64,000 bases of DNA from Paraspadella gotoi (taxonomy: Eukaryota; Animalia; Chaetognatha): NCBI GenBank assembly GCA_051294375.1, contig CM119263.1:21560494-21624493 (forward strand), read 5' to 3'. A program made the position numbers and the translations under genes. Shown here piece after piece: positions 51,301 through 54,300 of the stretch; the stretch's first letter is position 1; each line of letters opens with the position of its first letter. The notes beneath the pieces are model-generated. The model did no database searches, was not told the DNA's origin, and worked only from the letters and a program-made list of their open reading frames with translations.

Positions 51301-54300
51301 TCGATCCACGACCCGATGGAATCTCGAGACGTTAAAGTGAAAGGGGATGTCCTCTGCGCCAACAGGTGAGTCCACGTTTCTGTGGGTTTTCATAAAGGGG
51401 AATAATCAAATCGAAATGCGATACGTAAATCGCATTTGCATGCTGCAATAAAATAAACAATTAAAATATTCTAGTTTTTCGTGTTTTCTGGGGTTTATAG
51501 GTTTATAGGACAAGAATTTGTTTTATCATAATATGGTTAAATATTATTTGCAATTTAAGTTCCTTAAATAATAACATCATACATACGCACATACAATCAC
51601 ACACCTGTAAGGATACGTGTGATTGGTGAAATCCTGTAGCAACCGCTGCTGCTCTCGATGACCGAGAAAATTGGCAAATCGACGTGCGAGGTGTTCTCCG
51701 CTCAAGTAGTGCGACGCGCCACTCGAGATCATCGGACGAAAAGCGCCGTCGAAGCCTCCAGGCTCTCGAGGGATTTGGTGACAGTCGTGACGGCACCGCG
51801 GTGGCGGAGGCGGAGGAGGCGGCGGCTGCGGCAGGCGATGGCAGCAGCGTGACGGCGATGTGGTCACCGCCGGGATTGCCTCTCTTAACTCGGCGGCCTC
51901 CAAATAGCCAGCTAGCCTCGGGTCCAGCCTCTCGATGAAGCCGCGTCGTTGCAAGTTGTTGCTTAAATGTATTGAGGACGGGTCCGGGTGCTGCCGCGGC
52001 GGCTGCGACGGTGGCGCAAGTGACGCTGCGGCGATGGAGGAGGGTGAGTGAGAGGTGGAGTTGGAGACGAGGTCGTCGATGTCGACGTTGAAGGAGGATC
52101 GCATGTACGTCCGCGATTCCTCGTCCTCTTCCAAAACTTCGGCTCCGGAACGGGTCGTCCGCGGAAAAGCCTCGAATCCTGGAGGCAGTAGTACGCCGCG
52201 TGGGTGTTGCTGCAACGACTGGCGCTGAAGCTGCTGCGATTGCGGTTGCGATGCCTGCTGAGGAAGCGCAGACGACGATGAAGAGCCTGGAAAATCCGCG
52301 CCGCCGTTGGCGCCGCCTCCGCTGCGGCGGATCTCGCCGCCTGAGGCGTCCGCCGCAGCTGAGATGTGTGTAAGAGCGGCGGCGGCGAAGTTACAGCCGA
52401 CGCTGTTGCTGCTGGAGTTGCTGCTGTTGTGACTGTGATTGGTCGATATGTTGTGTGTCGGTGTCGGGTGGAGCGGCGTCGTCGGACCTGAAATGAAATT
52501 TTTGCTGAAAAATTTCGCAACTAGTGTGTCCCAATGGTACTGCCTGTTAAGAAAAGCTTACGGCTAATCTAACAGATCGAAAAACTTATGAATATGCGCA
52601 CAAGTATGGCCCATTTTATAGGATACCTAAATTTTAAAAAATGAACAAAGTTATTACATGAAGCAATTAGTAAAAATTTTTTCAGTGATTTTTTAAAAAT
52701 AATTCTTAAATATTATATTTTTTAATATTTTTCAAATGTTTTTTATAATATTGATTAAACAATATTTTAAATCTTTTCTTTAGATGCAGGACTGTAAGAA
52801 ACTACCTGATATTATTAGCTCCATTATTTATTTATTTTAGTAATCATTATTTTTAAAATTCTCTACCTACCTTATTCATATTACTTTTTAAATTGATTTA
52901 ATAATAATTTATTGAATAAATAGCAACCATTTTGTTCTGGCTTAATGATTCAATCGCTCACAACTTCAAATAATAAAATTTAAATATCAAATTATTAGAG
53001 AAAGCAAAGAATTTTGAATTTTTAACAACGATTTTTAATTAAAAATCGTTTTTAAAAATTCCAAATTCTTTGCTTTCTCTAATATCAATAAACAACGAAA
53101 AAGAAAGGATTATCGCATAATATCAAATTAATAAGCATATTTTTATCATTTTTTAAATTTTTTAATATATGTTTATTATTTTTTAATAATGCACTTATTT
53201 TATACAAATAAATATTTCATTAATTTATATCTATCTAAAATAGTTTTTATGTAATATTTTTAATAAAATTTATTTTAAAGTAAAAATTATCTAAAAATTA
53301 AAAAAGCGAGAAATGAGGACTTGAATTAGAAATATAGTATAATAAATAGTAAGAACTTATATCAGAAATAACATTTAATAACACAGTTCCGCCCAATATG
53401 TAAAAGTTAACCGACAGTACCATTGGGACACACTGTAACATTTTTTTTAAATAAAAATATAAGAAAAGATAAAAGAAAAGAAATAAGTCAGGAAGAAAGA
53501 CAGTCCTCTTGTTCTGAACTGCAGCAAAGAAGAACCTAACGATTAATATGCTTTTTTGAACTTGATATGTTAATGATTAGCGAAGGATGCGGCGCGAAGC
53601 CTGAAGAGGATAATGGAGAAAAAAAATATAAGTAATATGGTGGCCTAAAATCCATCAACCATTGGTGCCGAAGGCAAATCATTCGCCTCCCAACCCAAAG
53701 GTCTTGGGTTCTAGCCCGGTGGTCGCCTAGCAGTTAAGAGGAACGGGGAGCTTAACCCACCTGTAACACGGTGTTACGGCCAGATCCGAAGCTCAGGGAC
53801 TACTTATATTGAACGGTTTTGTTATTAACTCATAATAATAATTACTGTCTCTTCATTGGTGAGCCCGACTTTGATTACAACAGCAAAAACAACACTTTCA
53901 GGCGACATGCCTCAACCTGGCGATGCACTTTCTGCCAACAACACATCAGGCGACATGCCTCAACTTGGTGACGAACTTTCCATCAACTTTCCATCAATTC
54001 ACTGAAGAGACACAACATACTTCTCCCTACAGGAGGGGGGGATGTATGGTGGTCTAAAATCCACCAACCGTTCATCAGTGGCCATTGGTGCCAGAGGCAA
54101 GTCATTCGCCTCCCAACCCAAAGGTCAGGGGTTCTAGCCCGGTGGTCGCCTAGCAGTTAAGAGGGACGGGGCGCTTAACCCGCCTGTAACACGATGTTAC
54201 AGCCTGATCGTAAGCTCAGGGACTGCTTATATTGAACGGTTCTGCATTAACTCATAACAATAAATACTGTCTCTTCAGTAAATAAATTTTAAAAAAAGAA

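Follow-up and report, generated by a model that had tools for sequence, protein, structure and literature searches.

The 64-kb stretch of contig CM119263.1 analyzed here (assembly GCA_051294375.1 of the chaetognath Paraspadella gotoi, positions 21,560,494 to 21,624,493; hereafter the window) contains a short retroelement that consists of two long terminal repeats (LTRs) around a non-coding interior. The element is 642 nt long, is flanked by a 4-bp target site duplication (TSD), and its longest open reading frame (ORF) starting with ATG encodes 44 aa. The preliminary description of this DNA had proposed this anatomy, with a primer binding site (PBS), a polypurine tract (PPT) and no ORF, and all coordinates were verified (Table 1). 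The LTRs have the termini TA...CA rather than TG...CA, and the gap between the 5' LTR and the PBS is 1 nt. In agreement with the same description, BLASTN detected six LTRs in the window, i.e., the pair of the element, two solo LTRs and two truncated copies, and the interior was found once. An exact 4-bp TSD is present in all three copies that retain both ends and none of them extends to 5 bp; the chance of such an exact duplication is ~0.005-0.009 per copy. TSDs, PBS and PPT therefore support the proposal of a non-autonomous LTR element mobilized by Gypsy-type elements, and the element is almost certainly a terminal-repeat retrotransposon in miniature (TRIM). The LTR copies in the window are 5.6-11.4% apart. 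Between the LTR pair of the full element, 20 of the 219 sites in the alignment are different, and this insertion must hence be old. Within the interior two imperfect tandem repeats of ~48 nt were observed (53890-53985). A 7-bp hairpin opens the LTR (2513-2532 and the equivalent positions of the other copies), and a 35-nt tandem duplication with LTR 5' sequence (19785-19845) precedes one of the truncated LTRs, in which the A-box region is deleted.

Table 1. Features of the retroelement and of the related LTR copies in the window.
Feature	Position	Strand	Remarks
Left 4-bp TSD GTAA	53632-53635		sequence inspection
5' LTR	53636-53855	+	220 nt, ends TA...CA, 14-nt deletion near 5' end
tRNA-like head of 5' LTR	53655-53727	+	A-box/B-box; ARAGORN tRNA-Gly(ccc)-like at 80% threshold
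Twister-like motif of 5' LTR, type P5, broken	53730-53803	+	predicted site 53753/4
Interior, non-coding	53856-54044	+	189 nt
tRNA-Trp PBS, CsRn1-clade type	53857-53869	+	match to published PBS motif
PPT	54031-54042	+	2 nt separate PPT from 3' LTR
3' LTR	54045-54277	+	233 nt
tRNA-like head of 3' LTR	54078-54150	+	same ARAGORN register
Twister-like motif of 3' LTR, type P5, broken	54153-54226	+	predicted site 54176/7
Right 4-bp TSD GTAA	54278-54281		sequence inspection
Solo LTR, own TSD GAAC	2511-2744	+	best-preserved tRNA-like head; twister motif matches descriptor
tRNA-like head of solo LTR 2511-2744	2544-2616	+	best preserved
Twister motif of solo LTR 2511-2744	2619-2692	+	predicted site 2642/3; one P5 pair lost
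LTR truncated at 5' side	15212-15391	-	BLASTN; twister motif matches descriptor
Solo LTR, own TSD TGTT	17847-18080	+	twister motif 17955-18028 matches descriptor
LTR truncated at both ends	19842-19967	+	BLASTN; twister core present, P4 interrupted

The PBS agrees in 12 of 13 nt with the complement of tRNA-Trp (PMC10886601, Fig. S2). Its sequence conforms to the PBS motif of the CsRn1 clade of Gypsy elements, which permits either base at the mismatch position, and elements of this clade generate 4-bp TSDs (consulted sections of PMC2582038). As both the PBS motif and the TSD length are shared with this clade, the mobilizer is likely to be a CsRn1-clade Gypsy helper.

The first half of the LTR carries a tRNA-like segment with A- and B-boxes. 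At its default threshold ARAGORN predicts no tRNA gene. At 90% it detects, at LTR positions 34-106, a tRNA-Gly(ccc) pseudogene of 73 nt in one of the six copies, the solo LTR at 2511 (three calls in 2000 shuffles), and at 80% the same register is found in all four full-length LTRs. Of 20,000 shuffles, 28 contain a strict A-box together with a B-box that has one mismatch, the strict A-box itself being present only in the solo LTR at 2511. Two common variants of the family in the acceptor-like stem (54146, 54149) preserve the pairing. Since the D stem and the anticodon stem are broken, the segment has to be seen as a relic of promoter type and not as a tRNA gene. The tRNA-derived promoter claimed earlier for the LTR is thus supported as a tRNA-like segment with A- and B-boxes, whereas the tRNA model of Rfam has no match on the LTRs; overall the head of the LTR is very probably derived from a tRNA. 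No run of four thymidines (T4) is present in the intact LTR and interior; the full copy has a single such run, which is due to a change private to it. This absence fits read-through by RNA polymerase III (Pol III); by estimate it would occur by chance with a probability of ~0.25 and is thus not significant.

TRIMs with tRNA-derived LTRs, PBS and PPT are known as Helenus/TRIMp3, which in animals have 4-bp TSDs and Gypsy helpers (Kojima, 2024, PMC10886601); Pol III transcription from their LTR has been put forward without validation. The element resembles them in being non-coding and in the tRNA-like A- and B-boxes of the LTR, PBS, PPT, 4-bp TSD, solo LTRs and the Gypsy-type PBS. The length of 642 bp lies within the Helenus range of 311-1263 bp, and some Helenus LTRs also begin with TA. 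In difference to Helenus, the element has its tRNA part within the 5' half of the LTR, with a twister motif and no T-run behind it. The LTR-start and PBS motifs of the family gave no match in the supplement of PMC10886601, so that it does not correspond to a published consensus. As every sequence feature of Helenus that was compared is present in the element, an LTR with a tRNA promoter is in itself no longer novel.

The new part is the type-P5 twister-like motif right after the tRNA-like head of this Helenus-type LTR. The twister models of Rfam have no match in the LTRs (E<=1 for the window, E<=10 for the solo LTR), where its other models gave no credible match either, and therefore the motif was assessed by its anatomy, with the twisters of Schistosoma mansoni (PMC8501958, Table 1) as reference. 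The modules of the LTR follow the order of type P5, namely P5, P2', the pentamer of L1 that includes the catalytic G, a linker of 6 nt, U^AA and P2, followed by GC, a P3 of 7-8 bp, a 5-bp P4 with a U-CC-N-AAGC loop, and P5'. The sequence of P3 and P4 resembles that of the S. mansoni twisters. All core bases (N^AA, the GC of L2, U-CC-N-AAGC of L4 and GA-N-GG of L1 with the catalytic G) are kept in four of the six copies, and P4 and both pseudoknots, T1 with three Watson-Crick pairs and T2 with two pairs, were found. Compared to the reference twisters, T1 has its third pair flipped and P4 is closed by A-U, both changes being compensatory. HDV-like and hammerhead readings of the LTR were rejected by eye, the core motifs of both being absent, and a Twister-P5 match of Rfam at 37209 (E 0.32, below the gathering score) is unrelated to the LTRs.

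The descriptor built from this anatomy matches three of the six copies (four when relaxed) and none of 100,000 dinucleotide shuffles. A plain twister pattern gave four matches in the window and none in 100 shuffles of it. On the six copies 95% of the cells are paired, compared to 23-48% when the structure is slid, which is a lenient control because the structure was drawn from the same six sequences. The intact solo LTR folds with a z-score of -3.4 (0 of 300 shuffles). The match might be a chance fold within a structured LTR, an explanation favored by the failure of the covariance models of Rfam and by a descriptor that was tuned after the element had been seen. However, neither shuffle control reproduced the motif, and six modules and both pseudoknots stand in the correct order and echo the S. 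mansoni sequence, which makes a chance fold highly improbable. We regard it as very likely that the motif derives from a twister. The twister-core pattern was also used to look for homologs and retrieved 84 viral loci (83 scored, one at a contig end) and at least 119 loci in metagenomes (62 of 64 parts scanned). T1 together with a P4 of at least 3 bp was present in none of the 83 scored viral loci and in 2 of the 119 among the metagenome matches listed, and by BLASTN (E<=0.01) none of these 119 listed matches resembles the element. One metagenome locus (L109:801-843, minus strand) combines the twister core with T1 and a P4 of 5 bp, but has no matching P2 and was treated as a chance match.

In the single full copy of the window the motifs of both LTRs are broken and do not match the descriptor. 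The twister of the 5' LTR is substituted at the position of the catalytic G (53742), in T2 (53759), in the P1 linker, in P4 and in P5, and in the 3' LTR T1 is disrupted at 54210-11. This copy is a decayed fossil. Cleavage in both of its LTRs, releasing a monomer of ~423 nt, had been proposed in the preliminary description; the two predicted sites and the length of 423 nt are arithmetically correct, but with both motifs broken the proposal concerns the family and not the locus 53632-54281.

The family was also considered outside of the window. Nine public sequencing runs of one organism contain this DNA, none of them recorded as RNA; run X9, which might be RNA, behaves like the DNA runs. Contigs from four of the nine runs were aligned to the element. 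In the runs that cover the unique flank, the summed contig depth on LTR and interior is 10^3-10^4x that of the flank, which is not a copy number and is read as indicating high repetition of the family. Loose ends of 20-86 contigs in each run stack exactly where the LTR begins and ends. The junction of LTR end and PBS is present in loose-end consensuses of 14 contigs in run X1 and 7 contigs in run X2, and one diverged contig joins the interior to the 3' LTR (run X2, record 10). In other copies, too, this LTR is therefore combined with this interior, a point on which the preliminary description depended; backward contig joints are accounted for by the two LTRs of the element. At position 54210, ~95-99% of the aligned contig depth has the letter that pairs in T1. 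In 100 nt compared with a solo LTR as reference, only seven variants have a frequency of at least 2% in one or more of the runs, and the P3 loop holds the commonest one. The intact twister motif is thus the norm of the family.

Two published families are of special interest for comparison. Helenus-2_SyJa and Helenus-2_SyUm from Synergus wasps are the only consensus families with a canonical Trp PBS in a term search of the supplement of PMC10886601. By eye, their LTRs in DataS1 of that paper contain a complete type III hammerhead with stems I-III. These hammerheads have a 9-bp complement between loop I and loop II, and the main text of PMC10886601, in the sections consulted, is silent on them. 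Like the element described here, both families combine a tRNA-Trp PBS with a ribozyme right after the tRNA-like head and an LTR without T4 run (by eye), and Helenus-2_SyJa shares the 4-bp TSD (Table S1 of PMC10886601). They differ in the type of the ribozyme, a type III hammerhead instead of a twister, and sequence similarity is not evident. A review from 2020 hints at unpublished type III hammerheads of insects (PMC7761336). Judged by their sequences, the twister motif in P. gotoi and the hammerhead in Synergus suggest a recurring class of animal LTR retrozymes.

On balance we slightly favor the reading that the family consists of LTR elements of Helenus/TRIMp3 layout with a tRNA-like head and a type-P5 twister, and that intact copies would act as LTR retrozymes with a CsRn1-clade Gypsy helper. 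Transcription by Pol III would begin at LTR position ~34, in the tRNA-like head, and could continue through LTR and interior, as both are free of T4 runs in intact copies. The twister of each LTR would then cut at U^A. The P1 of the motif is a 6-nt self-complementary linker that forms 1-2 bp in cis and 6 bp with -8.3 kcal/mol as a dimer, and cutting may perhaps occur only as a dimer of 5' LTR and 3' LTR via this palindrome. A P1 of at least 2 bp is usual for twister ribozymes. Without P1 they remain active in vitro (review PMC5408937). For hammerheads of Penelope elements, which have short palindromic loops, cleavage in dimeric form has been suggested (PMC6765202). With a chance prior for the palindrome estimated at ~5%, dimer formation is to be taken as a lead. 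The resulting monomer of ~423 nt would have no R repeat, so that it would need to be circularized, as has been considered for the monomer of plant retrozymes (PMC4918200). A host ligase of RtcB type or the ribozyme itself could close the circle. Its ends may be held together by P5, by a 9-bp long-range stem between the LTR halves and by a 10-bp stem of interior positions 54003-54012, which are complementary to the final 10 nt of the LTR. In the LTR, positions ~22-30 and ~189-197 are reverse complements of 9 nt on either side of the tRNA-like head and the ribozyme motif. A competing hairpin across the cleavage site could protect the circle from renewed cutting. tRNA-Trp would prime the helper reverse transcriptase around the circle, by which two LTRs are rebuilt, and the helper integrase would insert the two-LTR DNA and yield the 4-bp TSD.

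Apart from the silence of Rfam, the descriptor tuned after the fact and the decay of the only full copy, several observations weigh against this reading. The 5' strand of P2 has 3 nt compared to a consensus of 4 bp and forms either 2 bp with a mismatch or 3 bp with a bulge, and according to PMC5408937 a P2 of altered length may disturb the active site of twister. The G-C pair that closes P4 is termed essentially invariant in the same review and is A-U in the LTR. An alternative hairpin takes up the cleavage site in the minimum-energy fold, and the z-scores are weak (-1.1 to -2.0). Covariation is absent within the family, with double changes in 0 of 27 pairs, because the copies are too young; the differences across the six copies (3.8% in the twister, 5.0% in the tRNA-like part and 5.2% in the 3' part) are likewise uninformative. 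The pattern hunts in viral and metagenome sequence provided no homolog from another species. For the tRNA-like head, 9% of the shuffles likewise give an ARAGORN call at the 80% threshold, and the A14 position of the A-box is intact in just one of the four full-length LTRs. No helper element was recognized when the list of ORFs in the 64-kb window was inspected by eye. The circular monomer of the decayed copy would be 57% paired (z -2.2, 5 of 150 shuffles), whereas more than 70% is quoted for retrozymes.

The element could accordingly be an ordinary Helenus TRIM that replicates linearly via an R repeat, its twister being the inactive relic of a ribozyme-bearing SINE (short interspersed element) once inserted in the LTR. 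An origin of Helenus by insertion of SINEs into LTRs was in fact proposed by Kojima (PMC10886601), and the short P2, the minimal P1, the A-U in place of the near-invariant G-C, the missing Rfam match and a twister that is not part of the minimum-energy fold would all be expected of such a relic. Yet the majority of the family retains all core bases and helices, the two altered pairs are compensatory and not disruptive, and in the wasp families the equivalent place is taken by another ribozyme that is complete (by eye). We therefore consider a relic unlikely. The earlier claim of twister ribozymes in the LTRs holds for the motif, which is far beyond chance, and is limited by the 3-nt strand of P2, the minimal P1 and the missing Rfam match. 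From its sequence the twister motif is probably catalytically active.

Cleavage in an active ribozyme might also merely define the end of the RNA. In this case a slow twister, acting chiefly in the 3' LTR, would replace the Pol III terminator, and a linear template with an R repeat of ~98 nt, calculated from the tRNA start to the cleavage site, would be copied and no circle formed. The intact LTR indeed has no T4 terminator, many Helenus LTRs without ribozyme have a T-run after the tRNA part (by eye), and with a weak twister many 5' ends would stay uncut. However, the LTRs are identical at insertion, so that the 5' ribozyme should cut too. In addition, the halves of the monomer are joined by long-range stems, and in the plant retrozymes, which have the same layout, circles accumulate (PMC4918200). 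A role limited to end definition thus appears improbable. The chances that a circular RNA serves as the intermediate are about even. The most far-reaching version, in which animal LTR retrozymes would be Trp-primed, CsRn1-dependent and Pol III-driven, would have recruited a ribozyme twice and would transpose via circular RNA, with a twister that obligatorily cuts as a dimer via its palindromic P1 and leaves solo LTRs and the circle uncut, is doubtful as a whole.

The plant LTR retrozymes (Cervera, 2016, PMC4918200) share with the element a ribozyme in both LTRs, PBS and PPT, the 4-bp TSD, solo LTRs, the lack of an ORF and a predicted blocked fold of the ribozyme. The P5 permutation is analogous to the type III hammerhead of the plant elements, as half a ribozyme would be located at each end of the monomer. 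Compared to plant retrozymes the element has a twister and not a hammerhead, tRNA-Trp and not tRNA-Met as primer, an internal promoter of tRNA type, an animal as host, and a monomer of 423 nt as predicted from the sequence instead of 600-1000 nt. By this comparison the element most likely works like an LTR retrozyme and stands outside the retrozymes as defined by the hammerhead. The T-variant twisters on Perere-3 of S. mansoni (Liu, 2021, PMC8501958) are similarly linked to a retrotransposon and have a similar P3/P4 and a weak P1. In contrast, Perere-3 is an autonomous non-LTR element that uses target-primed reverse transcription and has a single 5' ribozyme of type P1 with a 4-bp P2. The hammerheads of Penelope-like elements and of metazoan non-LTR retrozymes are also minimal, with a short palindromic loop and presumed dimers (PMC6765202), and the SM-alpha SINE of Schistosoma likewise combines a Pol III promoter with a ribozyme. 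All of these carry type I hammerheads in tandem arrays and have no LTR, PBS or PPT.

In the sections consulted, LTR retrozymes are described as hammerhead-bearing elements chiefly found in plants and non-LTR retrozymes as those of animals (PMC7761336; bioRxiv 10.64898/2026.07.22.740005; PMC11722881), and Helenus and retrozymes are mentioned separately (PMC13570524). The main text of PMC10886601 contains neither "twister" nor "self-cleav", and "ribozyme" only within a reference. Our literature search, with few subscription journals covered, found no published twister in an LTR, no ribozyme in Helenus/TRIMp3 and no dimeric twister with a palindromic P1. The scope of this search was the open literature; Repbase, Dfam and the original twister alignments lie outside of it, and an earlier annotation there is possible. 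The combination of LTR, tRNA-type promoter and twister, first thought to be undescribed as a whole, therefore has to be divided: LTR and tRNA part belong to Helenus, whereas the ribozyme is unreported in the literature searched.

Other features were observed in the window. A long, AT-rich and near-perfect inverted repeat, possibly a miniature inverted-repeat transposable element, lies ~550 bp upstream of the element (52993-53084) and draws spurious matches to miRNA families in the Rfam search. A second dispersed repeat family of ~133 nt is present in three copies (20340-20472, 22418-22550 and 61367-61499). Exons of an acidic protein with tandem repeats of ~41-42 aa (periods of 123-126 nt) are found at 32744-33777. 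By eye, EGF-like segments rich in cysteine and a probable transmembrane helix were seen in a frame of 520 aa (27613-29172, plus strand), which had no Pfam match at E<=0.01. A weak match to MFS_1 was the sole Pfam result for the ten ORFs of the window that were searched.

If the favored reading is true, the widespread twister ribozyme would gain a defined role in LTR retrotransposition, and different ribozymes could occupy one and the same slot of the retrozyme cycle. A natural twister with a P2 strand of 3 nt and a minimal palindromic P1 would widen the known fold and would account for the misses of the covariance models. Finally, families like the one in P. gotoi would represent an overlooked animal source of viroid-like circular RNAs.

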